Part shown: positions 1,999 to 27,405 of the stretch, in pieces | How positions within the stretch are numbered: the first letter of the stretch is position 1 | Layout: the number at the start of each line of letters is the position of its first letter | Source: Clostridia bacterium | Lineage (GTDB): Bacteria > Bacillota > Clostridia > JAAYHZ01 | Direction: 5' to 3' | Length of the DNA: 64,000 nucleotides | Assembly: GCA_050950825.1 (NCBI GenBank) | Contig: JBMNIH010000004.1 | Coordinates: forward strand, 544,001-608,000 | The notes under the pieces: model-generated | Seen by the model: only the letters and a program-made list of their open reading frames with translations | Told to the model about the DNA's origin: nothing | Database searches by the model: none | Program-made: the position numbers and the translations under genes

Positions 1999-4414
1999 TT
2001 TTTCAGAAAAAGCGGACAAAAGTATTAAGCTTTCAAATATGATTGCAACGAAATTCGGCCACGACCAAATTGCAACGGAGCATTTGCTGTACGGCTTGGT
2101 AGCCGAAGAAACCGGTTTGGCTGCAAAGGTGTTGGCCAAGCAGAATGTTACATCCCAGGCCGTTGAAGAAGGAATTAAACGTTTTGTCGGATACGGATTG
2201 AATCCCGGAAAACCGGTATCCGGATACTCTCCGCGAGCAAAGCGTATATTGGAAATGAGTTCGCGAGAAGCGAAAAAAATGAATATGGAATACATCGGCA
2301 CCGAGCATATATTATTGGCTCTGGTGAAGGAAGGAGATACGGTAGCGGTTCGAATTCTGCTGGATTTGAACGTTCAGCCGAAGATTTTGGTTAAGGATTT
2401 GATCGAAATGATGAAAAGCGGGGAAGGAGAAGGCGAGGTCAAAGAAACCAAAACCTTGGAAAAATACGGCCGCGATTTGACGAAAATGGCTAAGGAAGGC
2501 AAATTTGACCCCGTTATCGGTCGTGAAAACGAGCTTCAGAGAGTGATTCAAATCTTAAGCCGAAGAACGAAAAACAATCCTTGCTTGGTGGGAGAGCCGG
2601 GTGTAGGCAAGACCGCCATTGCCGAATTATTGGCCCAAAGAATTGCCGACGGTGATATTCCCGAAATACTGAAAGACAAAAGAGTCATATCCTTGGACCT
2701 ATCCGCCATGGTTGCCGGATCAAAATACCGTGGCGAGTTTGAAGAACGTGTTAAAAACGCCTTGGATGAAATTACTAAATCGGGAGACATCATTCTGTTC
2801 ATCGATGAAATCCACACCATCATCGGCGCGGGAGCCGCGGAAGGCTCCATCGATGCCTCCAGTATCTTAAAGCCTTCGTTGGCTCGAGGCGAAATACAGG
2901 TTGTAGGCGCAACCACGCTGGACGAATACCGAAAACATATTGAAAAGGATGCGGCATTGGAAAGAAGATTCCAACCGGTAATGGTTGGAGAACCCTCCGA
3001 GGAAGCCACTATTGCCATTTTGAAAGGATTGAGGGACCGTTACGAAGCCCATCACGGCGTAAAGATTACCGACGAAGCCATTTACGCGGCTGTTCGGCTG
3101 TCGGTTCGCTATTTAACCGACCGGTACTTGCCGGATAAGGCCATCGATTTGATCGATGAAGCCTGCTCGAAGGTCCGTCTTGCATCCTATACCACGCCTC
3201 CGGAGTTAAAGGAGCTTGAAGAAAAACTGGCCAAGCTGGAGAACCGGAAAAACGAAGCCATCAGCTGCCAAGAATACGAAAAGGCCGCTGAAATTCGAGA
3301 CAGCGAAAAGGCCTTACGCGAACAAATTGAAGTGATTCGTAACAACTGGAGAGAATCCACAAGACAGACCAACGGAACGGTGGGAGAAGAGGAAATCGCC
3401 GAATGCGTATCCCAATGGACCGGTGTTCCCGTGAGACGTTTGGACAAAGAAGAATCCAAACGATTGTTGGATTTGGAAAACATTTTGCATCAAAGAGTGG
3501 TAGGCCAAGAAGAAGCGGTAATAAGCCTGGCAAAGGCCATTCGAAGAGGAAGAACCGGATTAAAGGATCCGAAACGACCGGTGGGTTCCTTCATTTTCCT
3601 AGGTCCTACGGGTGTAGGAAAAACGGAATTAAGCAAAGCTTTGGCCGAAGCCTTGTTCGACAATGAAAACGCTATGATAAGAGTCGACATGTCCGAATAC
3701 ATGGATAAATTCAACGTGTCAAAACTGATCGGATCTCCTCCGGGATACGTAGGATACGACGAAGGGGGGCAGCTGACCGAGAAGGTAAGGACCAATCCGT
3801 ATTCGGTGGTTCTCTTCGACGAAATCGAAAAAGCGCATCCGGACGTCTTCAACGTACTGCTTCAAATATTGGACGACGGAAGGATTACGGACAGCCAAGG
3901 CCGAACCGTGGATTTCCGAAACACCGTCATCATTATGACCTCGAATGTGGGGGCTATGCAGTTGGCGGAAGAAAGACAGCTCGGATTCACGTCCCGGCAG
4001 GACAACGCCCAATCCGATTACAAGGCTTTGAAAAACAAGGTAATGTCGGAGTTGAAAAGAACCTTTAGACCGGAGTTCTTAAACAGAGTAGACGATATCA
4101 TCGTATTCCATCATTTGACCAAAGAGCATATGAATGATATCATTGAAATTATGCTAAAGGACTTGAGAAAGCGTCTGAGCAGCAAGAACATAACCTTAAG
4201 CGTGACGGATAAGGCGAAGTCATACCTCATCGAAAAGGGCTACGATAAAGCTTACGGCGCAAGACCGTTGAAGAGGGTTATTCAGAACCTTATCGAGGAC
4301 GGCTTGGCGGAAAAGATGTTGCTAAAAGAAATTTCGGACAACGACTGCGTAACAGTGGATTTGGAAGGAAACGAACTGGTATTTAGAAAGCAAAGCGTTG
4401 CAGAAAAGGTTTAA
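1982..4414 (+). CDS. clpC: ATP-dependent Clp protease ATP-binding subunit ClpC
   Basis: Clp-N repeats, two AAA modules ([16 protein letters not shown]), UVR middle domain, LGF ClpP-docking loop; start uncertain (1973/1982/1988). Confidence 0.97.
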
Positions 4415-14974: not shown

Positions 14975-15579
14975 TCAATGGATTTCTTCAATATTCAGTT
15001 CGATGCCCTGTTCAACAAATGTGAGCACGTTCCCGGAACGCTCCAAACGATAGACAATATAGTAATATTCAAGGGATTTGGGATAAACATCCTTGCCGTA
15101 AATTGACCATGCTTCCTCGTTAGGTTCTCGAAGCACAAAAACACCCGTTGTTCCGTTTTGGCATCCTTCAAGTCCCGGCGCAGGAACAATCCGCTTGTCA
15201 TCAATTTGCCCGGTATAGCCGGCGCCGCACACAATATGAATGACAGCGGGTTCGAATGTCCCGATTAATACTTCATCTACGTTGATTTCTGCAGTAGTAA
15301 TATAAAAGACGGATTTTGCATCCTCCTTGATTCGAACACTTTCAATTTTAGAAATTGTACCTTGAATCGTCAAATTATTGCGAATAGATTTCATCTTTTA
15401 TAATTCGCGGTATTTCTTGCGATGCGACGAAGACAGGATTGGATATGGCTTGCGCCGCAATATGATATTCCGAAGGTGTATCCATTAAAGTACCTGAAGT
15501 ATTTCCGTTTTTCACATTCGGTATTGTAATCGCAGCGGCAACAATTATGCACAGGCAGGCTGCCATTGCACTCCATTTT
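14975..15579 (-). pseudogene. Fragmented anti-sigma-factor-like membrane protein
   Basis: TM segment KWSAMAACLCIIVAAAITIP in one frame, downstream extracellular domain in another; N-terminus missing. Confidence 0.55.
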
Positions 15580-16032
15580 TCACATACCGGCGGCATACCA
15601 ATACCGACAAACAATAATTTTTCGTTTTTCGGTAGGAAGCTCTGAAAGAAATGCGTTTATGGCACTCACAAGCAGCTTGCGATTCCATTCATCTTCCTGA
15701 TTCTTTGAATCGGCTACAATTGCCGACGGTTCATCCAAGACCAATGCAATCTGTCCGGAGCCGCGTTTCTCTGCTTTATTTCTCTTGTAAACGTTAAAAG
15801 AAAGATTTCTTACGATCTTACCAAGATATGTAGATAATATTTTAGGTCTGTTTGGCGGAATAGAGTTCCACGCATGCAGATAGGTATCGTTTACACATTC
15901 TTCTGCATCTTCTTGATTATCTAAGATATTCTTGGCAATTGATAAGCAATAGGATCCGTATTTCTCCGATGTCACGGAGATTGCCTTTTCATTTCGCTCC
16001 CAATACATCCGAACGATTGAATCATCATCCAT
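15580..16032 (-). pseudogene. ECF sigma-70 factor, truncated in region 4
   Basis: MDDxxIVxMYWERNE, DAEECVNDTYL motifs; stops at RYWYAAGM before the region-4 HTH. Confidence 0.8.
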
Positions 16033-16243
16033 ATGCGATTCTTCCGTTCACCTATATACACAACTTTTGGGTTTGAATCTTACACCTCTTTTCAACATTT
16101 TTTATGGCAAAAACCTTTGAATTCAATGCTTCGTCTTCACATGATAAATATCCTGTTTATTATAGCATTTCTCTTGCCATATTCGGAAATGATTTAAAGA
16201 AAAGCCCACAAGCCTTAAGAATTTGCCGGCTCAACGCCGGCTA

Positions 16244-16298
16244 TTGACATAACGGTCTAATAGTGTTAGACTAATAACAAGGTTTAACGAAATTAGAC
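16244..16298 (+). promoter_or_regulatory. Promoter TTGACA-N17-TAGACT overlapped by two palindromic BlaI-type operators
   Basis: GTCTAA-N5-TTAGAC at 16255-16271 and GTTTAA-N5-TTAGAC at 16282-16298 directly upstream of the blaI-like gene. Confidence 0.75.
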
Positions 16299-16311
16299 TT
16301 GAAGTGATGAA

Positions 16312-16677
16312 ATGAAAGATTACAAATTGGGCATGATGGAAACAAAGTTTGCCGAGCTCATCTGGGACAACGAGCCCATTTCCTCCGGTGAGCTGGTGAA
16401 GCTATGTGAAAAAGAATTGACATGGAAAAAATCGACCACTTATACTATGCTGCGCCGACTCTGTGATCGCGGTATCTTTCGGAACAGGGAGGGAACGGTC
16501 TCTTCGCTGATGTCAAGGCAAGAATTTGCCGCTCTGCAGAGCGAGAAGTTTGTTGAGGAGACCTTCGACGGTTCGCTTCCTAAATTTCTGGCGGCATTTA
16601 CGATGCGGAAGAAATTGTCCGAAGAGGAAATAAACGAGCTTCTGAGGCTGATTAATGAAAAGCGGGGTGATACCTGA
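16312..16677 (+). CDS. BlaI/MecI/CopY family transcriptional repressor
   Basis: WKKSTTYTMLRRL winged-helix motif and FDGSLPKFLAAF; coupled to an M56 gene. Confidence 0.92.
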   Translation: MKDYKLGMMETKFAELIWDNEPISSGELVKLCEKELTWKKSTTYTMLRRLCDRGIFRNREGTVSSLMSRQEFAALQSEKFVEETFDGSLPKFLAAFTMRKKLSEEEINELLRLINEKRGDT

Positions 16678-18044
16678 TGTGGATATACACGCTTTTACCT
16701 CAAATTCTAAACATGAGCATAACGGCAAGCATAGTTATCATTCTCGTACTTGCAGCCCGATTCCTATTGAAAAAAGCACCGAAGGTATTTTCATATGCCC
16801 TTTGGGCTGTTGTTCTTTTCCGCCTTATTTGCCCCGTATCTTTTTCATCTCCAATTTCATTGATAGGGTTCATTTATCCTTCGGCAAGAACGGTTGACAA
16901 TGGCGCTTACAGCAGTCTCACTTATATCCCTACGGATATGGTACCGCAGGTGGATTTACCGGTACCGGGTATTAATGGAGCCTTACATGGCATCCTGCAT
17001 GAGGGCGGGGAGGGGACTTCCGGCGCTTCGCTTGAATTCCCGATGGCTTTTGCCACAATGCTCTGGCTTTTCGGTATCGGGGTAATGATGATATACGGCG
17101 CAGTTTCATTAATCCGCTTGCGTAGAAAGCTCACCGGCGCCGTCCGGCTGCGGGAAAACATCTATCTTGCCGACCATATCGTCACTCCGTTTGTTATCGG
17201 CATACTGCGTCCGAAAATTTATCTCCCTTCGACGCTTCGGGGGGAAGAACAGAGCTATGTTATCCTGCATGAACAGACGCATATCCGTCGACAGGACCAT
17301 CTTGTTAAAATGTTTGCTTTCCTCGTTTTGGTTGTTCATTGGTTTAATCCGCTTGTATGGGTTGCTTTTGTATTTATCGTTAAAGATATGGAGATGTCCT
17401 GCGACGAGCGGGTCATAAAGCTCATGGGTGACGATATCCGCGGTGAATACTCGACGTCTTTGCTGTCTTTATCGGCGGGGAAGCGCCTGATAAACGGCGG
17501 TATGCCTGCCTTCGGCGAGGAGAATATCAAGGGACGTATCAGGAACGTCATGAACTATAAAACACCGGCGGCTTGGGTTGTTATCCTTTCAATATTATTT
17601 GTGGTCGCTCTGAGCGTAGGTTTAGCGTTGAACAAGTATTTGGTTACATTGAATGTGGAAAATATTGCCGATGCCATTCTCACAACCGAGATAGAAGGAT
17701 GGTACCCGCTTGCAAAAGGCACGCCGTATCATCTCAATGAAGAGGAATTAAATTCTATCATCGAGTTGGTTAATAAATCATCGAAAAAACCCATTTTAGA
17801 TAAATACAAGCCAACCTACGGAGATCTGTATAAGACGTATTGCACAATTCAATTCGTGATGGCAGGTGCAAACGGCGTACCCGAAGGAACGTACAGGCTT
17901 CAGCTATACAATCATAAGGATTGGAACATCCTTCGCGGTGAAAGCGAGTATAAGCTTGCGCTCGTTGATACCGACGGAAATAAAATGTGGCAGCTCTCGT
18001 ATGATACATGTTACCAATTTAAGAGCCGCTCGAACAATATTTAA
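16677..18044 (+). CDS. BlaR1/M56 family metallopeptidase sensor with a non-PBP C-terminal domain
   Basis: HEQTH zinc motif, HWFNPLVW, EMSCDE; TM helices. Confidence 0.9.
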   Translation: MWIYTLLPQILNMSITASIVIILVLAARFLLKKAPKVFSYALWAVVLFRLICPVSFSSPISLIGFIYPSARTVDNGAYSSLTYIPTDMVPQVDLPVPGINGALHGILHEGGEGTSGASLEFPMAFATMLWLFGIGVMMIYGAVSLIRLRRKLTGAVRLRENIYLADHIVTPFVIGILRPKIYLPSTLRGEEQSYVILHEQTHIRRQDHLVKMFAFLVLVVHWFNPLVWVAFVFIVKDMEMSCDERVIKLMGDDIRGEYSTSLLSLSAGKRLINGGMPAFGEENIKGRIRNVMNYKTPAAWVVILSILFVVALSVGLALNKYLVTLNVENIADAILTTEIEGWYPLAKGTPYHLNEEELNSIIELVNKSSKKPILDKYKPTYGDLYKTYCTIQFVMAGANGVPEGTYRLQLYNHKDWNILRGESEYKLALVDTDGNKMWQLSYDTCYQFKSRSNNI

Positions 18045-18276
18045 ATCGATTGAATTCCTCTGAAGAAAATATGGACATCGGATAAAAGGAATGATTGCCT
18101 CATTCGTTTGAAAATCACGAATATGATAGACGTGATGAGTTTGATATAAAGTGTACCCTTTGTCAAGGACAAAATGAGTTTTTGATTTCAATTCATAAAT
18201 GAGTATTCAGTGGCTGTTGATTCACCTGTCCCGGACTTTGAGTACTACCATACCGGTGTTTCGGAGTCAGGTTTCC

Positions 18277-18447
18277 GCATTTATTCCACGATCCTCTTGA
18301 CAACGAGCCTCTGCCGGCATGTTTGCTGGCATCAGAGGCATCCCCCATGCTGAACAAGGCAGAAGGGCTCTGGAGGTGGTTGATGCCCGGTCAGATAGCC
18401 TAACATGCCGGGCTCTCATTGTCAAGAGGCTTTCGCGGCATAAACGC
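18277..18447 (-). other. Conserved ~170-nt hairpin element (copy 1), candidate ssDNA promoter/origin or structured RNA
   Basis: Nested inverted repeats; homologous to 23274-23439 with compensatory changes. Confidence 0.7.
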
Positions 18448-18457
18448 TGCCTTCCCA

Positions 18458-19417
18458 TCAGCTCTCCTTGAATCCATTTGGCTTGGGTATATTTAGTGGA
18501 TACTCGCCAGTTGTTAAATATTTGTAATACTCTGCAGGAGATAGCTTTGCTAAATCCCATTGATATCTTTCGTAGTTATAATACTCTGTCCAGTCAGTTA
18601 TTGCTGATAGGATTTCTTCATAAGTGTTACACTCTTCGATATGAATTTCATCCTTCATATGTCCGAAGAAGGACTCTTGCGGAGCGTTATCCCAGCAGTT
18701 TGCCCTTCTGGACATTGACTGCCTTAATTCGCTGTTTTTAATCAGCTGTATAAAACTAAGACTAGTGTAATGTGACCCTTGATCACTGTGGATTAGGGTT
18801 TCTGCCGTTAAGGAAATCCCATGTTTTTCAATGAGCTGATTCACTGTCTCAAGTACAAAATCAACTTCCAAAGATGGACTCACTACCCATGCTAGGAGTT
18901 CTTTTGTACAGGCATCTATAATAGTAGACATATAGCATCTAGGTGCTCTACCGTTAATAATATATGTGATATCTGTAAGCAGAACTTTCCGTGGTCCATG
19001 TTCCTCAAACTCGCGATTCAGGAGATTTGGAGCGACATAGGAAGTACCTATCGCTTTTGCTATACGTCTGTATGGATTTGCTTTGCGAATTGGGCATTTT
19101 AATCCATACTTCTTCATAAGACGCCGAATCTTTTTTATGTTCATGACAACCGGTGGAGTCTGATGCAGTAATCTCATATAAATCCCACGTGCACCCTTAT
19201 CATATCCTCTGTGTTTATATGCTTCTATGATGAGAAGAAAATCCTGTTGATCCTGTTCTTCTTTCTGTTTTCTAACTTCTTCTGTAGTGAGATAGTGATA
19301 ATAGCCGGATCTAGAAACACCAGCGATTTCGCACAGGACAGAAACATTTAAAAGATTCCCATGCAGTGCTACTGTTTCTTGTATGATTTTATACTTGGCA
19401 TTTGCAGGAATGATCAT
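18458..19417 (-). CDS. IS3-family transposase OrfB (DDE/rve)
   Basis: TDITY, IHSDQGSHY, CWDNAPQESFFG motifs. Confidence 0.95.
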   Translation of the reverse strand: MIIPANAKYKIIQETVALHGNLLNVSVLCEIAGVSRSGYYHYLTTEEVRKQKEEQDQQDFLLIIEAYKHRGYDKGARGIYMRLLHQTPPVVMNIKKIRRLMKKYGLKCPIRKANPYRRIAKAIGTSYVAPNLLNREFEEHGPRKVLLTDITYIINGRAPRCYMSTIIDACTKELLAWVVSPSLEVDFVLETVNQLIEKHGISLTAETLIHSDQGSHYTSLSFIQLIKNSELRQSMSRRANCWDNAPQESFFGHMKDEIHIEECNTYEEILSAITDWTEYYNYERYQWDLAKLSPAEYYKYLTTGEYPLNIPKPNGFKES

Positions 19418-19818
19418 AATTCCCGTGCCTCCGGATCTAAAGATACAATTTTTTTTAGAAACTCTATCTCTTGCTCCTTATATGCCAGTTGCATCTCTAG
19501 GTATTTAATCCTGTTTTCTGCTGACATATAGCCGTTTCCAGCTTGCATATAAGTATTCAAGTCACGGAATCCATTGCCTTTTTTTACTTCATTACGGATC
19601 ATTGTTTTTAATCCGCCAATCCTTATTTCGCCTAGTATCTCGGGATTAATGCCAAGAGATTTAACTATATCTTTTGGTAATTTCCCTTGCATTAGTGCAT
19701 TCCAGAATTCTTTTTTGAATTCCGCAGAGAAGTGTACAGTGCTTGGTGATACATCCAGAACATACTTGCTTTTTCTTAACTCGGACATTTCTTCTGGGGT
19801 AAATTTCTTATTTGCCAT
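19414..19818 (-). CDS. IS3-family OrfA; probable -1 frameshift to OrfAB at an A8 run
   Basis: Ends EIEFLKKI; CTAAAAAAAATT slippery site near 19449-19456 with the -1 frame open into orfB; ATGA overlap; GGAGG RBS. Confidence 0.88.
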   Translation of the reverse strand: MANKKFTPEEMSELRKSKYVLDVSPSTVHFSAEFKKEFWNALMQGKLPKDIVKSLGINPEILGEIRIGGLKTMIRNEVKKGNGFRDLNTYMQAGNGYMSAENRIKYLEMQLAYKEQEIEFLKKIVSLDPEAREL

Positions 19819-19882
19819 ATATGCCTCCAATCCAACTACATTTATTGTAATATGCATCTGAATTGAAGTCAAAAACTGTTCT

Positions 19883-20030
19883 TGTCCGGAATATAGGGTT
19901 TTGAAAATGCATGTGTCCGAACAACAGGGATTATATAAAATCTATTGTCCGAAATGTAGGGTTTTTTCAAAAACCTAATGTCCGATGGTAAGGGTTTTGA
20001 AAACCCAAAGTGTCCAAGCTATAGGGTACA
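19883..20030. repeat. Five phased TGTCC-N7-AGGG repeats at the IS3 left end
   Basis: Copies start at 19883, 19914, 19946, 19979, 20011; the same motif forms the core of both terminal IRs. Confidence 0.85.
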
Positions 20031-20080
20031 TTATAGATAGTTGCGACGAGATAAAAACAATGTTTTGCCCTGAAATGTCA

Positions 20081-20105
20081 AAAACCCTTGCAGCGCAAGG
20101 GTTTT
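20081..20105 (-). terminator. Hairpin downstream of tRNA-Ala
   Basis: AAAACCCTTGC-AGC-GCAAGGGTTTT perfect inverted repeat. Confidence 0.65.
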
Positions 20106-20116
20106 CGGTCAAAATG

Positions 20117-20192
20117 TGGTGGAGACGAAGGGACTCGAACCCTCGACCTTTCGGATGCGAACCGAACGCTCTCCCAGCTGAGCTACGCCCCC
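20117..20192 (-). tRNA. tRNA-Ala (anticodon CGC)
   Basis: GGGGGCGTAGCTCAGCTGGGAGAGCG...TTCGG-TT-CGC-AT-CCGAA...GGTTCGAGTCCC...CTCCACCA; 76 nt, G3-U70 pair, encoded CCA. Confidence 0.97.
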
Positions 20193-20303
20193 ATACAAAC
20201 GAGAATATTATACCACATTTTAAATTTTCGTAAATAGAGTATAGAGTATTATCAAAGAAATCAAAAACTTTTTACAAATGACGATGAGCCTATACCGGTA
20301 CCT

Positions 20304-21809
20304 TTATAATACCTTTAAAAGGTCCTGCAGTAACAACCAAGCTTTTTCGTCTATCGCTTTGCATTCGTCAATAAGATAACCGATTTTTTCACGTATTTCA
20401 CGGGATGCAAGCGCTTGAATCTGTTTCTCTCCGCGCTCCCAACCGCCCAATACTTGGTACATTTTTAATGCGCACGCCGCCGATTCGGCAAATCGTTCCG
20501 CAATTTTTGCATATAACGGTTGCTTCGGATTTTTATCGGCCAGCTTTTTAAAGTATTTATATGCGTTTTTACGCCCGTCGGCAAGACAATCTACGGCATC
20601 TTGATGACACATAAGTCGTTCCACAAGCAGGGAGCTTACCATGTCTTTATTGATTTGACTTTCGTCCAATAGAGCCTTTTTCCATGCTTCATAAGCATAT
20701 CCGGCTTTTGCATATTCATAATGCCTTCTCGGCGTCATAACCTCGATAGCGTTTTCAACGACGTTTCTTACCGTGTATCTTTTGCCGGTGATTTCCCCGA
20801 ATGACATAAGTGCATTGGTACTTTGATTTTCCCACCACCGGTCGGTTATATAATAACCGGATTCGTCAAAACGTACGTTTGCAGCATATTCCGAGTAATT
20901 CTGAAACACGTTCCATCCTAATAGGATATTGCCGTTATCGCGATAACCGGTTATGATTCCCGGTTCGGGAGGACCGATGACACCCCTTGCGATCACCGGG
21001 ATACCGTTATCAATTTTTTCTTTAATGAAGTTTATAAACTCGGCCTTTTGGGTTGTTTGCGATCGGCCGATCAGATTGAATTGACAACCTATAGACTCGA
21101 TGGCACGGCGGAACACCTTGGAAGGGTCGTCAAATGTAAAAATATCGCCCACGTTACCTCCGTCCCAAGTCGTTTCGTTCCAACTAAGGCGAAAAGCCAT
21201 ACCGCAATAGACGATTGCATCCGTATAGTCCAGCTCAATCCCCATGTAATTCGCCGCCGCTTTCATACAAATCGGTAGGGGAGTGATCCCGCCGAACGCA
21301 CCGTAATGAACCTTAGGAACACCGTATAAAACAACGCTTCCGTCCGATACATGTCTTTGTTCATGGTTATTCATTTTTACAATCCCTTCCTTTTCTTTTT
21401 GAGAAACCGGATTGAAATTTATAGATACGCCGAAAACACCGGCAGTTAAAACGGTACGGCCGACAGATCGTTTTTGTCTTCGAAAATCGCTCGGATTAAA
21501 ACCGGTAATACGCTTGAAAGCTCTTGTAAAAGAATCCGGATTTGAAAAACCGTATTTTGTAGCAATGTCCAAGATATTTTTATCACTATGAGAGATGTCA
21601 AAAGCCGCATGTGCAATTCTTCTGCTTAAAACGTAGCGGGATAAGGATTTTCCCGTCAGCTTGGAAAAAACGGATCGAATATGCGACAGAGAAAACCCCA
21701 CCGCCTTTTCAAGCTCCGCATACTCGAAACCGGTTTGTAACCTATTTTCAACGAATATAATGACCGAAGAAACCATAACATATTGATCCATCACATCACA
21801 ACCGTTCAT
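20304..21809 (-). CDS. AraC-family regulator with N-terminal HTH and a large C-terminal domain (BtrH/peptidase-C39-like, tentative)
   Basis: DIATKYGFSNPDSFTRAFKRITG AraC signature in the first 110 aa. Confidence 0.82.
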   Translation of the reverse strand: MNGCDVMDQYVMVSSVIIFVENRLQTGFEYAELEKAVGFSLSHIRSVFSKLTGKSLSRYVLSRRIAHAAFDISHSDKNILDIATKYGFSNPDSFTRAFKRITGFNPSDFRRQKRSVGRTVLTAGVFGVSINFNPVSQKEKEGIVKMNNHEQRHVSDGSVVLYGVPKVHYGAFGGITPLPICMKAAANYMGIELDYTDAIVYCGMAFRLSWNETTWDGGNVGDIFTFDDPSKVFRRAIESIGCQFNLIGRSQTTQKAEFINFIKEKIDNGIPVIARGVIGPPEPGIITGYRDNGNILLGWNVFQNYSEYAANVRFDESGYYITDRWWENQSTNALMSFGEITGKRYTVRNVVENAIEVMTPRRHYEYAKAGYAYEAWKKALLDESQINKDMVSSLLVERLMCHQDAVDCLADGRKNAYKYFKKLADKNPKQPLYAKIAERFAESAACALKMYQVLGGWERGEKQIQALASREIREKIGYLIDECKAIDEKAWLLLQDLLKVL

Positions 21810-22039
21810 TTCCTCTATATGGAGTGATGTCAGTATATCATACGAAAAAAATATCTTCTCGACTTTTTTAATGATGTTAAATGAAAACCCAAACGAATTG
21901 TGTTATTTAAGATAACAACATTCATGCCGAGATAAGGGACGATTAAGTCTATATAATGGTGTAAAAAGAAGTTGAGCCAAAGCTCATACCTCGGTTAGAA
22001 TATAAGTGTCATCAAATACCAAACCGAGGAGGATGAACC

Positions 22040-23254
22040 ATGGCTCAGTTTAATATTACAATAACCGAAAAACTTTTGCACGGACTATTTTTATCAAACG
22101 GCAGGGATGAAGCATTTTCCAAGCTATTAGAGGAAATCTTCAACCAGGTACTATTAGCCCAATCTTCAGAACAGGTAGGAGCTGAACCCTATGAGAGAAC
22201 TGAAGAAAGAACTGCCTACCGCAATGGTTTTCGAGACAGACAGATGACTACTCGAGTTGGCACACTTACTCTGCGGGTCCCCAGGCATCGCAATGGTAAG
22301 TTTTCTACAGAGCTGTTTGCCCGATATCAACGCAGTGAACAGGCCTTGATACTGGCCATGATGGAGATGGTGATTAATGGGGTTTCAACTCGTAAAGTTG
22401 AAGCCATCACACAAGAGCTCTGTGGTAAATCGTTTTCTAAATCCACAGTTTCAGCTCTTTGTAAGCAGCTGGATCCCATGGTTCACGCTTTTAGGACAAG
22501 ACCGCTTGAAAGTCATTATCCCTTTCTAATTGTAGATGCTCTTTACCTTAAGGTGCGTGAAGATCATCGGGTTGAGTCAAGAGGATTACTCATCGCCGTA
22601 GGTGTCAACGAAGAAGGTTATCGCGAAATTATTGGCTTTCAGGTGGCTAACACAGAAACTGAAAGCAGTTGGGGGGAATTCTTCGCATCCCTAAAGGAAA
22701 GGGGATTAAAAGACGTTCGCTTAATTACATCCGACAATCACAAGGGGCTTGTCAATGCAGTCAAGAGACATTTTCAAGGAGCAACCTGGCAACGATGTCA
22801 AACCCATTTTTCAAGGAACATGCTGGATCACACTCCTAAAGCACTACAGCCTGTTATCAAAGAAGATCTTCGTGAGCTGTATGAAGCTGTTGACTTAGAT
22901 AGCGCTCGAAAGGTCAGAGATCAGCTCCTTGGTAAATACGGGACGATAGCTCCAAAAGCTGCTACTCTATTAGACGAATCCTTCGATGATGTCACGGCGA
23001 TTCTGGCAGTGCCCCTGAAATATCGAAAGCGACTACGTACTACAAACGGCGTGGAACGGCTCAATCAGGAAGTGAGGCGGCGAGAGCGGGTAATACGCAT
23101 CTTCCCTAATGAGGCATCCGTAATCCGCTTGATAGGTGCCCTGCTTATGGAACAAGATGAAAAGTGGCAAGCAGGCCGTAAATACTTTGATATGGATTTA
23201 TATTATCAAAGTATGGAAAACAAGAAAACCAAGGATAGAAACCCTGCTGCCTAG
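22040..23254 (+). CDS. IS256-family (mutator) transposase
   Basis: YRNG, GVSTRKV, DALYLKVR, WQRCQTHF, RTTNGVERLNQEVRRR motifs. Confidence 0.97.
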   Translation: MAQFNITITEKLLHGLFLSNGRDEAFSKLLEEIFNQVLLAQSSEQVGAEPYERTEERTAYRNGFRDRQMTTRVGTLTLRVPRHRNGKFSTELFARYQRSEQALILAMMEMVINGVSTRKVEAITQELCGKSFSKSTVSALCKQLDPMVHAFRTRPLESHYPFLIVDALYLKVREDHRVESRGLLIAVGVNEEGYREIIGFQVANTETESSWGEFFASLKERGLKDVRLITSDNHKGLVNAVKRHFQGATWQRCQTHFSRNMLDHTPKALQPVIKEDLRELYEAVDLDSARKVRDQLLGKYGTIAPKAATLLDESFDDVTAILAVPLKYRKRLRTTNGVERLNQEVRRRERVIRIFPNEASVIRLIGALLMEQDEKWQAGRKYFDMDLYYQSMENKKTKDRNPAA

Positions 23255-23273
23255 GGTACCTACTACTATCATT

Positions 23274-23439
23274 GCATTTATTCCACGGTCTGTTGACAAC
23301 GAGCCTCTCATGGCCTGTTTATATGCATCAGAGCCATCCCCATTGTTTTATCGATATGTCTTACGCTGGAGTGGTGATGCCTGGCAATCAGCCTAACATG
23401 CCATGTACTCATTATCAACAGCTTTCGCGGCATAAAAGC
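23274..23439 (-). other. Conserved ~170-nt hairpin element (copy 2)
   Basis: Homologous to 18277-18447; inside the IS256 between the transposase stop and right IR. Confidence 0.7.
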
Positions 23440-24090
23440 TTTCGTCTGGTCCGGTTGATAACATCAATGTCCTTTAGCATACCGGCTGGACAAACCGAGG
23501 TAATTTACACACTATTTTGGACTTGACTCACATTCACATTGTGGTGGTTTCTTTTTGTGTTGCGAATTGATAAAACGCATAATCATTATATAACAGTTTA
23601 TTAAAATGTGAATACATACTATTTATAATATTTTCCGGCTATAAAATTATTACCTGAAATATTTGTAAGTGTCAAAGAAATCAATACATAGAATAAAGCC
23701 TCTGTAGATAGTACCATCATAATTAAACGTGGTTGGTAAAGTCGAAAAAGATGAAAAGTTAAATGCGAAAAAAGTCCTCTAATAACAGAGGTCTTTTAAA
23801 ATGCTTCATGGTAGGTTGTGGCCGGTCTTGCGTTTTCGCCGTCCTATCCACCCTACATTTGTTTGAAACTATATTTACGCTTTCAATTATTTCTTACCTA
23901 ATCCAAACAACAATTGAATAACCGTTTCGACAATCTTCTATTCGGATTCTTCCATTTCTATATCAAACTCATTACATAATTTTAATGTATAAGACAGAGC
24001 AGCATTGGCTCTTTTTTCTTTTGGGATCTTATCATTGAAAGTTTTTATGTATTCCAAACTTATTGTCTACCAAATCGCTTTTTAAATAAT

Positions 24091-24115
24091 AAAACCCTTG
24101 CAGTACAAGGGTTTT
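24091..24115 (-). terminator. Hairpin next to the distal att site (probable original tmRNA terminator)
   Basis: AAAACCCTTG-CAGTA-CAAGGGTTTT immediately after the displaced ssrA 3' end. Confidence 0.6.
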
Positions 24116-24117
24116 GT

Positions 24118-24155
24118 TGGTGGAGGCGAGCCGTACCTCCCCATATCCACAACCA
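24118..24155. other. Distal attachment site (duplicated ssrA 3' end plus attP arm)
   Basis: Core 24118-24130; ATCCACAACCA at 24145-24155 is the inverted repeat of TGGTTGTGGAT at 31414-31424. Confidence 0.85.
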
Positions 24156-25693
24156 CCCTCGTATATGTTATGCCGACTCATGTCAATTGAGTGAATATCA
24201 AGCGTATCATCGTAGACGATAACTTTCTTGACATATGTTTGGATAATTTGCTTTTGCTCTTCCGGAGTTCTGCTCCTTATGTCGGCATCCTTAGCCAGAT
24301 ATGCTCTTATCATTTCTTCCGAAGGGGCATGAGCTTGAGCTTGGATCTTGGCTTCCTCGATCTTCAACTCGAGAGCCGATCTCTTCGCTTCGAGTTCGTC
24401 CATCTTTTCTTTCATGCTCGGGTGAAACATCCCTGCGGCTATGGCATTGACGATATTATTGATTTCGGTCTTAATGCCTGTCAAACGGTCCGTAAACGCT
24501 TTTATATCTCTGTCGATCTCTTTCGTTTGCTCGGCCGCATATTCCATTACCTTCTTGGCGATCGTGTCAATGGCCTCGGGGGAGAATACGTTTTTCTCCA
24601 GATATTCTATCACGATATTTTCAACGTAATCCTTTCGGATGTTTTTCATATCGCAGCTCTTTGTTCGCTTGCGAATAGAGCACTCATAAGTCACCTGCAG
24701 AGTTTTATTCCTGCCCGCATATCTTCGATTGCCGACCATGGCTCCGCCGCATTTACCGCAGAAAATGATACCCAGATAATAAGATACGTCTCTTTCGCCT
24801 TGTTCGCCGCTCGGACCTCGTTTCATTCTTTCTCCATTCTCGCTTGCACCCTCTCCCAGGCTTCGTCCGTCTATGATCCGAGGCATGCCGCCCTCGATTC
24901 TTGATAATCTCCTCCTCACTTTTGCTTTTGCGGTGGTTACGCTTTCCGTCTGATTTTTCGGATCGGAGCGATTGAATATGTAAACGCCACGATACTTTTC
25001 ATTTTATAAGTATCTCGTGCAAGCCGTTCTTCCCGAAACGGCCTGCCGGTCTTGTGTCCTGCAGCCAGTCTTGATTCAGCTGCTACGTATAATTTCGCCG
25101 TATCCAGAGCCAGCAGGCATACATCTCATAGATATAGCCTGTACGAGCCGGCGACTTCGTGCTCGTTGATAATGTAGGTGCCGTCCGGGGCTACGTCGTA
25201 TCCCAGCGGAGGTTTCCCGCCGGTATGTTTGCATTGCAGGGCAGTCTCTCTCATGCCCTTCATGACTTCCCGGGCAAGGTTTCGGCTGTAATATTCGGCC
25301 ATTCCCTCAAGGACGGATTCAAGAATAATGCTTTCCGGACTATCGTCCAGGTTTTCGAGAACCGATATAAGCCTGACACCGTTCTTCTTTAGCTGACGCT
25401 TATAAAATGCGGAATCATACCTATCTCGGCTGAACCGGTCCAGCTTATGTGAACGATGACAGCAGCAAACAGACCCAGGGCGCTGTCCTGTATCATCTGC
25501 AGAAAGCCAGGTCTGTCATCTGTTGTTGCGCTCCGGGCTTCATCAGTATATATCTTGACAAGGCGGATCCCATTTCTATCACAGTATTCACGGATAGCGC
25601 GAAGCTGAGCTTCTATTGATTCTTCGCGCTGGTTGTCACTGCTATACCTTGCGTACGCTGCTGCTTTGATCATCGGTTGCCCTCCTATATGCA

Positions 25694-25707
25694 AGAACTT
25701 ATGTTCG
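25694..25707 (-). promoter_or_regulatory. LexA/DinR (Cheo) box upstream of the integrase
   Basis: CGAACATAAGTTCT on the minus strand matches GAAC-N4-GTTC, about 9 nt upstream of the GGAGG RBS. Confidence 0.7.
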
Positions 25708-25735
25708 TAGTTATAATAAAAAAAAATAAAGTTAA

Positions 25736-26251
25736 TTAGTTTTCTTGGCTGTAATGTGAAAATTTAATACCTAATCTACGAAGCATATCAAAAGTGTTTA
25801 TATATTGGACATTAAAAGCTACACAAACATTAGGAATAGGTATTCTCTTTTTAATTTCTTTATTAAAAGCCTCGTGTGTAACTACTATTAACCCTTTTGC
25901 CTTTGCATATGCGATCAACCATCCATCTGCACAGCTTGCAAATTCACTTTTGGCTTCTGGTTTAAATTGTGTTTGGTTATATGACCATGTCATAATGTCT
26001 CTATAAGCGTCAATAACGTCATCTTCACCGGTTGATTTACACAAAGATTCAAAATTTTCTATCCATTCTGCTAATTCATCTTTTCCTTTTTTTATTTCCG
26101 ACATTATACGATCAATTATGATTATATGTTGATTTTTAATATGAACGCTTAAAGCCTCCCAAAAAGGAGGCGCTATGTCGAATGCATAGTACCGACGTGA
26201 AGCTTCCATAAAAACATTAGCATCTGGGATAAATATAGTATTACTGGTCAT
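25736..26251 (-). CDS. DUF4411 family (PIN-like) protein, candidate toxin
   Basis: DANVFMEA..YY..D..P.FW, ADGWLIAYA, VVTHE, IPNVC motifs. Confidence 0.85.
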   Translation of the reverse strand: MTSNTIFIPDANVFMEASRRYYAFDIAPPFWEALSVHIKNQHIIIIDRIMSEIKKGKDELAEWIENFESLCKSTGEDDVIDAYRDIMTWSYNQTQFKPEAKSEFASCADGWLIAYAKAKGLIVVTHEAFNKEIKKRIPIPNVCVAFNVQYINTFDMLRRLGIKFSHYSQEN

Positions 26252-27405
26252 AATAAATTCCCCAATTCTAACGACTCAGCATAGCGCTCAAAAGTCTTTC
26301 CATACAGTCCTGTAAGTTGATATGCTTCATGATATAGAAGTTTTTCTTCTCGAACAGCAGTGATTATAGCTTCTGCAAAACGTCGGCCGATACGCAGATT
26401 TTGGCTTGCGTAGAAATTACCTCCATCATTGTTTTGATTCTTATTTTTCTCTTTTGTCTGATAGTCATTATAAAACTTTATAAATGTATCTTTTGTAATA
26501 TATCCTAAGTCAAGAGCTCTACGTGCAACGACCAACTCGCTTACCTTAAATTGGCGTGCTAGTATCTGAAAAGGTTCAGAATTATTGGAAACTGTAGACC
26601 AGATTTCCTGAAATTCATGCTTAGGAACCAAAAACTCTGCAGCTAACATATTACAAATTAGCTCAATTTTATCTTCAGCGGGCTGAAGATCACGGAGATC
26701 AAATGCAGCGCTAACACCAAACCAAACATGAGCCAACTCATGTGCTAGTGTAAACATCTGAGCAGCTTTTCCGTCAGCACCATTTACAAATACTAAAGGC
26801 GCATATTCATCGACTAAAACGAAACCACGAAATTCGGATGGATTAAGTTTGCGATGTGTATTATTTCCTACAACGCTATTAACGACTACAATAATGCCTA
26901 TATTTTCCATGCGGATTTGCAATTCTCGTAATGCTTCAGTCCAATTTGGCTGTTTTGCTGCCCATTCCTCTTCAAGCCCTAATGTCTTTCTCATTTTCTG
27001 AGCTACATAGGAAGGATCCTCTGCAAGATCTACCGAATTTACAAAAGGTAACGGGTCATGACCTTGCTCAATAAGATAATCACGCATCCAATTCTGGCGC
27101 CGTTTCATTATCTGTACGGTTTCGATAAGTTCAGCGCTGAATTGATGCATAAATTGATTTTTGTCGGTACGGAAATATGGAATAGGAAGTTGCTCTACTG
27201 GTGGCTCTGGAAGGAAAAAATAACCCAGTGGAGTATAAGTTGCTTTTGCCAAGTCTTCTAACTGGCGCAAAGTAGGCATACTTTCTCCTTTTAGCCACTC
27301 AGATAGCTTTGGAAACCTCTGTTCGATTGTAAAGGCTCTGCCCGACCTTTCAAGAGCCCATAGAAGAACAGATTTTTCTATAGCTACTTCTGGTATTTTA
27401 GCCAT
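26248..27405 (-). CDS. HTH-XRE plus ImmA/IrrE (M78) metallopeptidase fusion, candidate antitoxin
   Basis: PTLRQLEDLA HTH, EFRGF, FTLAHELAH; 4-bp overlap with the DUF4411 gene. Confidence 0.9.
   Translation of the reverse strand: MAKIPEVAIEKSVLLWALERSGRAFTIEQRFPKLSEWLKGESMPTLRQLEDLAKATYTPLGYFFLPEPPVEQLPIPYFRTDKNQFMHQFSAELIETVQIMKRRQNWMRDYLIEQGHDPLPFVNSVDLAEDPSYVAQKMRKTLGLEEEWAAKQPNWTEALRELQIRMENIGIIVVVNSVVGNNTHRKLNPSEFRGFVLVDEYAPLVFVNGADGKAAQMFTLAHELAHVWFGVSAAFDLRDLQPAEDKIELICNMLAAEFLVPKHEFQEIWSTVSNNSEPFQILARQFKVSELVVARRALDLGYITKDTFIKFYNDYQTKEKNKNQNNDGGNFYASQNLRIGRRFAEAIITAVREEKLLYHEAYQLTGLYGKTFERYAESLELGNLL

Follow-up and report, generated by a model that had tools for sequence, protein, structure and literature searches.

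The closest described relatives of the element reported here are the single-strand origins (ssos) of rolling-circle plasmids. According to the accessible text of two sources (PMC5703833, PMC8860593), ssoA is a stretch of ~160 nt that folds when single-stranded and is bound by RNA polymerase, which primes synthesis there, in one orientation only, while the RSB motif is part of palA of pT181 (= ssoA) and is found also in ssoU, ssoT and ssoW. The accessible part of PMC4598088 gives RSB as 5'-TTATGCCGAGAAAATTT-3' and a second ssoA signature, CS-6, as 5'-TAGCGT-3'. Here we describe a module whose base stems share homology with those of palA/ssoA and that occurs twice in a 64,000-nucleotide stretch of a Clostridia bacterium genome (hereafter the window; positions 544,001 to 608,000 of contig JBMNIH010000004.1), once inside an insertion sequence (IS) of the IS3 family (copy A, 18277-18447) and once inside one of the IS256 family (copy B, 23274-23439). 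The module is a non-coding imperfect palindrome of 160-175 nt with no reading frame common to the copies, and is exchangeable, standing in the 3' non-coding part of unrelated ISs of at least six transposase families. While the type of element is known, its carriage by at least six transposase families is new, as is the link to the mechanism of transposition to which this carriage points.

The sso1 of the integrative and conjugative element (ICE) ICEBs1 is functional, orientation-specific and matters for the life cycle of the element (Wright, Johnson and Grossman 2015, PMC4595007). Like the module it is a plasmid-type sso inside an integrated mobile element, but it is of the pTA1060 (ssoT) type and its host is a 20-kb conjugative element with rolling-circle replication and single-stranded transfer, whereas the module is carried by ISs of 1.6-2 kb with a DDE transposase. 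In Mycoplasma ICEs a stretch resembling the putative sso of a plasmid is reported by Guerillot et al. (2014, PMC3942029) between the gene for a DDE (Mutator-like) transposase and the terminal inverted repeat. The module stands in the corresponding place, though these ICEs are large conjugative elements, unlike the ISs considered here. The ISLre2 proteins of the window's genome match the NCBIfam model for the Mycoplasma ICE transposase-like proteins, under its cut-off. RUP of Streptococcus pneumoniae is a small repeat that reportedly prefers insertion sequences and is regarded as a miniature element mobilised by a transposase with target duplication. The module differs in showing no duplication and in its homology to ssos.

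The two hairpins and the plasmid single-strand origins

Copies A and B can be aligned end to end, with 79% mean column identity (254 columns, flanks included) and sharp borders, the first letters being GCATTTATTCCACG and the last CGCGGCATAAA, beyond which the flanks are unrelated. The transposases of the two carriers are unrelated too, with rve and HTH_Tnp_2 domains in the IS3 element and Transposase_mut in the IS256 element. A preliminary description of the locus, made from the letters alone, had claimed that two unrelated ISs carry the same hairpin, and all of the sequence blocks it quoted, together with both of its compensatory pairs, are visible in the alignment. The likeness is far above chance, there being 29 copies in the window's genome and not one of 500 shuffles matching the covariation observed among 51 variants. 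Each copy is a long interrupted rod for which the minus strand is the better folder. Folded as RNA, the minus strand of copy A reaches -83.0 kcal/mol (z -5.06) against -75.8 (z -3.36) for the plus strand, and that of copy B -65.4 kcal/mol (z -5.70) against -48.3 (z -1.85; 8 of 200 shuffles equally good). Folded as DNA, copy A gives -43.7 (z -5.5) for the minus strand and -36.9 (z -3.5) for the plus strand.

The motifs of the rod, read from the sequence of the minus strand, begin in copy A with the RSB-like TTTATGCCGCGAAAG (18430-18444), which is identical to the published RSB at 12 of the latter's first 13 bases and makes the 5' arm of the base stem P1. Its partner, the 3' arm CGTGGAATAAATGC (18277-18290), pairs with it through one G-T wobble and one G/A mismatch. 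TTGACA, a -35-like hexamer, lies within stem P2 (18420-18425), and TAGGCT occupies an asymmetric internal loop after P3 (18397-18402), at a possible place for CS-6 though it is not CS-6. The RSB-like motif of copy B is at 23422-23436, again on the minus strand. Among the 51 IS-borne variants the 5' end of the folded strand is TTATGCCGCGAAA in 45, part of this motif having been fixed by the pattern used in the scan.

The RSB-like motif stands at the foot of the rod, the same place as in pE194 and pT181, each of which has one RSB, in palA. In palA/ssoA of these plasmids, as in the module, a non-coding imperfect palindrome of ~160-170 nt folds well on one strand alone and has RSB at the 5' foot of the rod, a 3' partner TGGAATAAA, a P1 of 5+4 pairs (one mismatch, one G-T wobble), an internal loop and a long P2; pE194 has TGGAATAAATGCG where copy A has the 3' arm of P1. 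No alignment with the plasmid forms is possible for P3 and P4 in the interior, and palA/ssoA lies beside rep, the double-strand origin (dso) and mob, whereas the module lies inside ISs on chromosomal contigs.

A covariance model, R1, built from the 51 IS-borne variants only, scores copy A at 185.9 bits (at the corresponding place in the genome) and copy B at 152.1 bits. The same model finds palA/ssoA in pE194 (637-798, 42.5 bits, E 4.7e-11) and pT181 (3767-3930, 42.3 bits, E 5.1e-11), these E-values being rough owing to a short calibration, and it also finds hairpins in a B. sonorensis plasmid (L151; 79.2 bits), in pFL7 (L150; 73.8 bits) and, as a mini form of 75 nt, in a B. cereus plasmid (L152; 71.7 bits). 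All five matches cover the full model and are on the RSB strand, while the opposite strands of the plasmid targets score 22 bits or less. The preliminary description had recognised no named family in the hairpin; its base stem proves to be the RSB stem of the ssos. Rfam was indeed silent, a cmscan of 15000-27000 with E up to 1 returning no family at the module and only a tRNA and two weak matches elsewhere.

When the minus strand was compared with plasmids by blastn only its first 36-44 nt matched, in unannotated DNA of 15 Bacillus plasmids, but taken in full the matched regions are rods, and both arms of their outer stems agree with the module. In the hairpins of small MOBV Bacillus plasmids (pFL7-like, B. 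sonorensis) and in the mini form of the B. cereus group, P1 with its AAAG loop, P2 with a TTGACA-like sequence and the GAGGCTC block are near-identical to those of the module, whereas a different interior is present in B. sonorensis and none in B. cereus. The records carry no annotation for these regions and we found no description of them as ssos. An ssoT of the pTA1060/pBAA1 type, our first guess for the Bacillus matches, was rejected as the published ssoT stretches look different, and R1 gave no match better than E 8.9 at the sso coordinates of pTA1060 and pTA1040, which were taken from PMC4595007. The mini form (L152:1500-1574, B. cereus ATCC 4342 pBGM) consists of P1, the AAAG loop and P2 alone and is present in six other B. 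cereus-group plasmids of 34-41 kb. That so short a hairpin scores 71.7 bits suggests that P1 and P2 are the functional core.

Covariation and the folded strand

The consensus of the 51 variants, which are mutually less than 93% identical, has five helices with 42 pairs. In the alignment 97.3% of cells are paired and 20 of the 42 pairs show compensatory changes. None of the 500 shuffles reached any of five covariation measures, and when the partner was slid by 1-3 columns as a control only 34-46% of cells were paired. The covariation is located in helices 2, 3 and 5. Helix 1, formed by the ends, is invariant, partly by construction because the scan pattern fixed the RSB ends. One variant (G049:C232:1649-1809; L038/L043) has the same 27 nt at each end as copy A around an unrelated interior, and scores 91.2 bits with R1.

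On the minus strand G-U pairs make up 135 cells in 24 pairs, while A-C combinations, equivalent to G-U pairs of the plus strand, make up 19 cells in 9 pairs. RNAalifold gives -38.8 kcal/mol for the minus strand against -26.7 for the plus strand. The structure is under selection, and it is so on the minus strand; a neutral double-stranded palindrome should lack the G-U bias. Selection on the structure, the minus strand as the folded one and an apical part free to vary had all been put forward from the two window copies, and all three agree with the larger alignment.

By eye, the 5' arm reads as TTGACA, 17 nt and TAGGCT with the second hexamer unpaired, which is like a pre-opened promoter, a remark that we make in passing only. 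A TTGACA-like hexamer lies 16-18 nt ahead of TAGGCT in 41 of the 51 variants, and only 19 of the 51 have TTGACA itself.

Carrier families, orientation and a possible role in transposition

Counting the window's genome in each case, blastn found the module in 12 of 61 relatives, and the covariance model found it in 23 of 151 genomes of the class, belonging to 18 of 107 genera. A pattern scan of one genome per species gave at least 99 further stretches, from Acetivibrio, Ruminiclostridium, Thermoclostridium, Anaerobacterium, Caldicoprobacterales, Lutisporaceae, Thermoanaerobacterium, Syntrophomonas, Tissierellia and other Clostridia, with a few on short contigs binned to other phyla. These loci are not independent, some assemblies contributing several, and the counts that follow refer to the at least 99 matches listed. 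In 81 of the 99 there is a transposase homologue no more than 700 nt away, in every case with its 3' end toward the module. What had been claimed for two families, an exchanged module in the 3' non-coding part of ISs, therefore holds for at least six. The largest group is IS256 with 44 loci, where the strand sense to the transposase is the plus strand of the module in all 44. Sense is the RSB strand in 10 of 12 IS3 loci and the plus strand in the other 2, the RSB strand in 4 of 5 IS21 loci (after istB, or an istA fragment) and the plus strand in 1, and the RSB strand throughout in 11 loci of an unclassified DDE family of 475-491 aa, in 6 of ISLre2 and in 3 of ISNCY type (NF033594, IS481-like). 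Among the remaining 18 listed loci, 7 have flanks homologous to parts of ISs, 1 has an ISLre2 remnant, 1 is upstream of an IS110 gene and 3 are too near a contig end to judge.

The alignment of the 475-491-aa DDE family stops 9-15 nt before the module in all 11 of its loci (L055, L065, L078, L090, L100, L112, L117, L129, L135, L141 and L145). The family has 4,135 relatives at E 1e-10 among 8,000 candidates scored, and its NCBIfam matches (IS6, IS66, IS3) are weak and all under cut-off. In the sources its members are named 'DDE-type integrase/transposase/recombinase', and in one 'IS6 family'.

The folded strand is thus constant whichever way the transposase reads. In the window the IS3 genes (18458-19872) have the minus strand as their sense strand, while for the IS256 gene (22040-23254) the minus strand is antisense, in agreement with the preliminary description. 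The G-U bias is alike in IS256-borne and other copies and so is independent of transcription of the transposase. A constant folded strand is a better fit to DNA than to mRNA, and what we observe speaks for an element of single-stranded DNA, which would account for a folded strand that ignores the direction in which the transposase is transcribed. The preliminary description had looked toward RNA, with Rfam and northern blots in mind. It seems improbable to us that the module is a structured RNA, whether one that stabilises or terminates the transposase mRNA from its 3' UTR or a small or antisense RNA transcribed from the module itself. A long stable hairpin with G-U pairs directly past a stop codon would suit such an RNA and metatranscriptome contigs do span IS and module, although such contigs reveal neither the strand nor the ends of a transcript, and DNA in the RNA libraries may be their source. 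With the folded strand antisense in every listed IS256 locus and sense in most others, no one role in the mRNA suits both; moreover no T run follows the stem, and a terminator scan called none for the module, flagging small hairpins outside it only. The lack of an Rfam match at E up to 1 and the homology of the base stems to a DNA replication signal also speak against an RNA.

In copy-out/paste-in transposition, as set out in the accessible text of PMC7780238 and PMC3299598, one strand of the IS is joined end to end to give a figure-eight, which host replication turns into a double-stranded circle. IS3, IS21, IS256 and ISLre2 are listed as circle-forming, presumably by copy-out/paste-in, in the accessible parts of bioRxiv 10.1101/2023.06.07.543989 and PMC3942029, so with these four carriers the module stands inside circle-forming IS families. 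On balance we favour the reading that it is an RSB-type sso-like hairpin, a cassette between the stop codon and the right terminal repeat of such ISs, at which the host would prime the start of the second strand; both the priming and its role in transposition we infer. During replication of the figure-eight, extension from the flanking 3'-OH would displace the circularised IS strand, and the strand with the RSB motif (the minus strand of the window), once single-stranded, would fold into the rod. Host RNA polymerase would then bind the RSB stem and make a short primer, as at plasmid ssoA, from which DNA polymerase could copy the single strand, so that the module would speed conversion of the displaced strand to the double-stranded, integrating IS circle. 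For IS2, of the IS3 family, the donor is the right end (PMC3299598), which makes the sense strand the one to be circularised. In the IS3 element of the window and in the 10 listed IS3-type loci noted above this sense strand carries RSB, which places the module near the 3' end of that strand, and synthesis would proceed back across the entire element. No IS circle junction was found among the metatranscriptome and DNA contigs, which is evidence neither way.

A broader proposal, which we put forward more tentatively, is that copy-out/paste-in ISs of Clostridia may carry a lagging-strand origin of their own, captured from rolling-circle plasmids, whose orientation would report the strand used and with it the donor end (sense strand and right end in IS3, ISLre2, IS21 and the unclassified DDE family, antisense strand and left end in IS256), and that the cassette may have moved between IS families by recombination at the RSB ends.

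A number of observations weigh against a role in second-strand synthesis. The orientation is opposite in the 44 IS256 loci and in 3 of the 37 others, so the model predicts a left-end donor for IS256, and we found no evidence on the IS256 donor end in the literature consulted, including the accessible part of PMC7780238. Five of the 99 listed loci have no IS signal despite at least 500 nt on either side, and many ISs of the same families in the window's genome lack the module, which makes it an optional cassette and not a required part. An exact CS-6 (TAGCGT or TAGCGA) is present in only 2 of the 51 variants, for which reason we file the module as an RSB-type sso-like element nearest to ssoA and not as a strict ssoA. 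TAGGCT, present in 49 of the 51 with its first four letters fixed by the pattern, is in an internal and not a terminal loop. A promoter scan did not flag TTGACA-17-TAGGCT, since the second hexamer matches at only 3 of 6 positions. Finally, R1 was briefly calibrated and its training set was picked by a pattern containing the RSB ends.

A full-text literature search (outside subscription journals, ISfinder notes and supplements) returned no description of an sso in simple ISs or of one tied to the step from figure-eight to circle. PMC12016507 was set aside as a precedent because the case it treats is the insertion of an IS close to a plasmid sso and not an IS that carries one. A large proportion of bacterial ISs transpose by copy-out/paste-in, and the literature consulted credits no more than 'host replication' with making the circle, as worded in the accessible parts of PMC7780238 and PMC3299598. 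If the favoured role is correct, an IS-borne sso would be the first cis-acting replication signal for this step, making the step testable, and would show that replication modules are exchanged among plasmids, ICEs and the simplest ISs alike. Even without a role for the IS, the module remains a clear example of a structured DNA cassette common to at least six transposase families. Practically, the hairpin is a compact marker, splitting metagenome assemblies where ISs end, and a candidate sso for vectors in cellulolytic and biogas Clostridia.

Copies in the source genome and their surroundings

The window's genome (G000; 3.55 Mb in 11 contigs) has 29 copies of the module, every one in a repeated unit that reaches beyond the module on both sides. 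They belong to six IS types, one IS3 (type A, 5 copies), three IS256 (type B, 3 copies; type D, 6 copies of which one is diverged and one interrupted; type S2, 1 copy) and two ISLre2 (type C, UPF0236, with 13 near-identical copies the most prolific IS of the genome; type S1, 1 copy). In all of these types the module starts ~2-45 nt past the stop codon of the transposase, and 61-190 nt separate it from the end of the IS.

The IS3-family element with copy A extends over 18143-20035 on the minus strand, as judged by the extent of the repeat and by reading its ends, and is present five times in the genome, once as a partial copy. A contig from a DNA run fuses 18142 to 20036 (4 letters ambiguous) without the 1,893-bp element, an empty site which proves that the module travels within the IS3 element. 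Its orfB (18458-19417, minus; Pfam rve, rve_2, rve_3 and HTH_21), with the rve integrase core, ends ~10 nt from the module and scores 254.8 bits with NCBIfam transpos_IS3, over the cut-off; orfA (19414-19872, minus) has the Pfam domain HTH_Tnp_2. The IS256-family element with copy B, which has three genome copies, covers 21941-23526 on the plus strand by the same evidence. TGTAAA, the subterminal sequence named for IS256 ends in the accessible part of PMC7780238, was found at both of its ends. Its transposase gene (Transposase_mut, 22040-23254, plus) stops 19 nt before the module. The shared repeat continues past the module for 123-127 nt in the IS3 type and for 86-92 nt in the IS256 type; element ends of IS256 and ISLre2 types come from a rough boundary walk and are approximate.

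Many other repeats of the genome are without the module, namely two types each of IS1182-like, IS110 and IS30 elements, three of IS21 and one of IS481, together with IS1634, IS4, IS91, a group II intron and other IS256, IS3 and ISLre2 types, a sample too small for a test of family enrichment. Within the genome no IS copy was found that differs solely by loss of the module. A copy of the type C ISLre2 at contig C2, 187983-189581, was considered as such an empty site and rejected as truncated, since it is without the last 403 nt (module and IS end) and continues into unique sequence. At C2:38744-39254 (with ~1.6 kb beyond) a type C ISLre2 is inserted into the module of a type D IS256, near its 3' end, and the type D sequence resumes with ~10 bases repeated, so the hairpin can itself be the target of an IS.

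The preliminary description saw the hairpin as hitch-hiking in IS ends, which is possible, but a working origin appears to us the better reading. In its fuller form the former would make the module a selfish palindromic cassette, MITE-like (resembling a miniature inverted-repeat transposable element) or a relic of a plasmid sso, of no benefit to the IS, spread by recombination at the RSB ends and harmless in a 3' non-coding region; we regard this as unlikely, though with more in its favour than an RNA. The sharp borders and conserved ends fit it, as do the G049 variant and the Bacillus plasmid forms, which keep the outer stems alone around different interiors, the naming of RSB as a recombination site in the accessible text of PMC5703833, the many sister ISs without the module and the five apparently solo copies among the 99 listed loci. 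The same may be said of metagenome contigs that break at the borders or join the ends over a different interior. Against it, there is no target-site duplication around the module in 12 aligned copies, none of the 29 copies in the window's genome is solo, and the module takes the same place after the transposase stop in at least six families. Helices 2, 3 and 5 moreover have compensatory changes and a strand bias unlike those of a neutral palindrome, and the module is kept in all 13 near-identical copies of the genome's most prolific IS. A MITE proper was rejected on the same lines, for although the ends are inverted repeats no duplication is seen and there are no solo copies in the genome and only five candidates in the scan. 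With 29 of 29 genome copies within ISs and 81 of 99 listed loci beside a transposase gene, homologues are concentrated in ISs as had been expected.

Contigs from metagenomes and metatranscriptomes of biogas and bioreactor samples end at the borders of the module (18271-18277 and 18448-18450 of the window), and some connect its two ends, 18311 to 18415, via 81 other letters. Such breaks and alternative interiors indicate several variants and carriers of the module within the same communities.

That the module is a working sso serving the replicon in which the IS sits, with ISs supplying conjugative or rolling-circle plasmids or ICEs, or with a captured sso that works only there, has in our judgement a low probability, similar to that of an RNA. 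Homologous hairpins do occur on small MOBV Bacillus plasmids, a full-length copy lies near a relaxase gene in Ruminiclostridium hungatei, and the sso of ICEBs1 aids stable acquisition after transfer (PMC4595007). However, an IS inserts either way while an sso works one way, so that any benefit to the carrier would be haphazard. The association is with particular IS families and not with plasmid genes, and all 29 copies in the window's genome are on contigs of 143-728 kb alongside ordinary genes. The R. hungatei copy (L128; 820-981 of its contig, in module orientation) is 583 nt from the gene for a Mob_Pre (MOBV-type) relaxase, a plasmid-like or mobilisable context, and ISs may have acquired the cassette from a setting of this kind.

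Between the two ISs of the window are a tRNA gene (20120-20192, minus, 64.1 bits), ~85 nt beyond position 20035, where the IS3 element ends, and a gene for an AraC-type regulator of 501 aa (20304-21809). The window's genome is very rich in repeats, with 106 regions of 700-6000 bp, 250,760 bp in total or ~7%. They include IS1182-like elements (12 regions), IS256, IS3, ISLre2, IS21, IS30, IS110, IS4, IS1634, IS91 and IS481, while 5 regions hold a group II intron.

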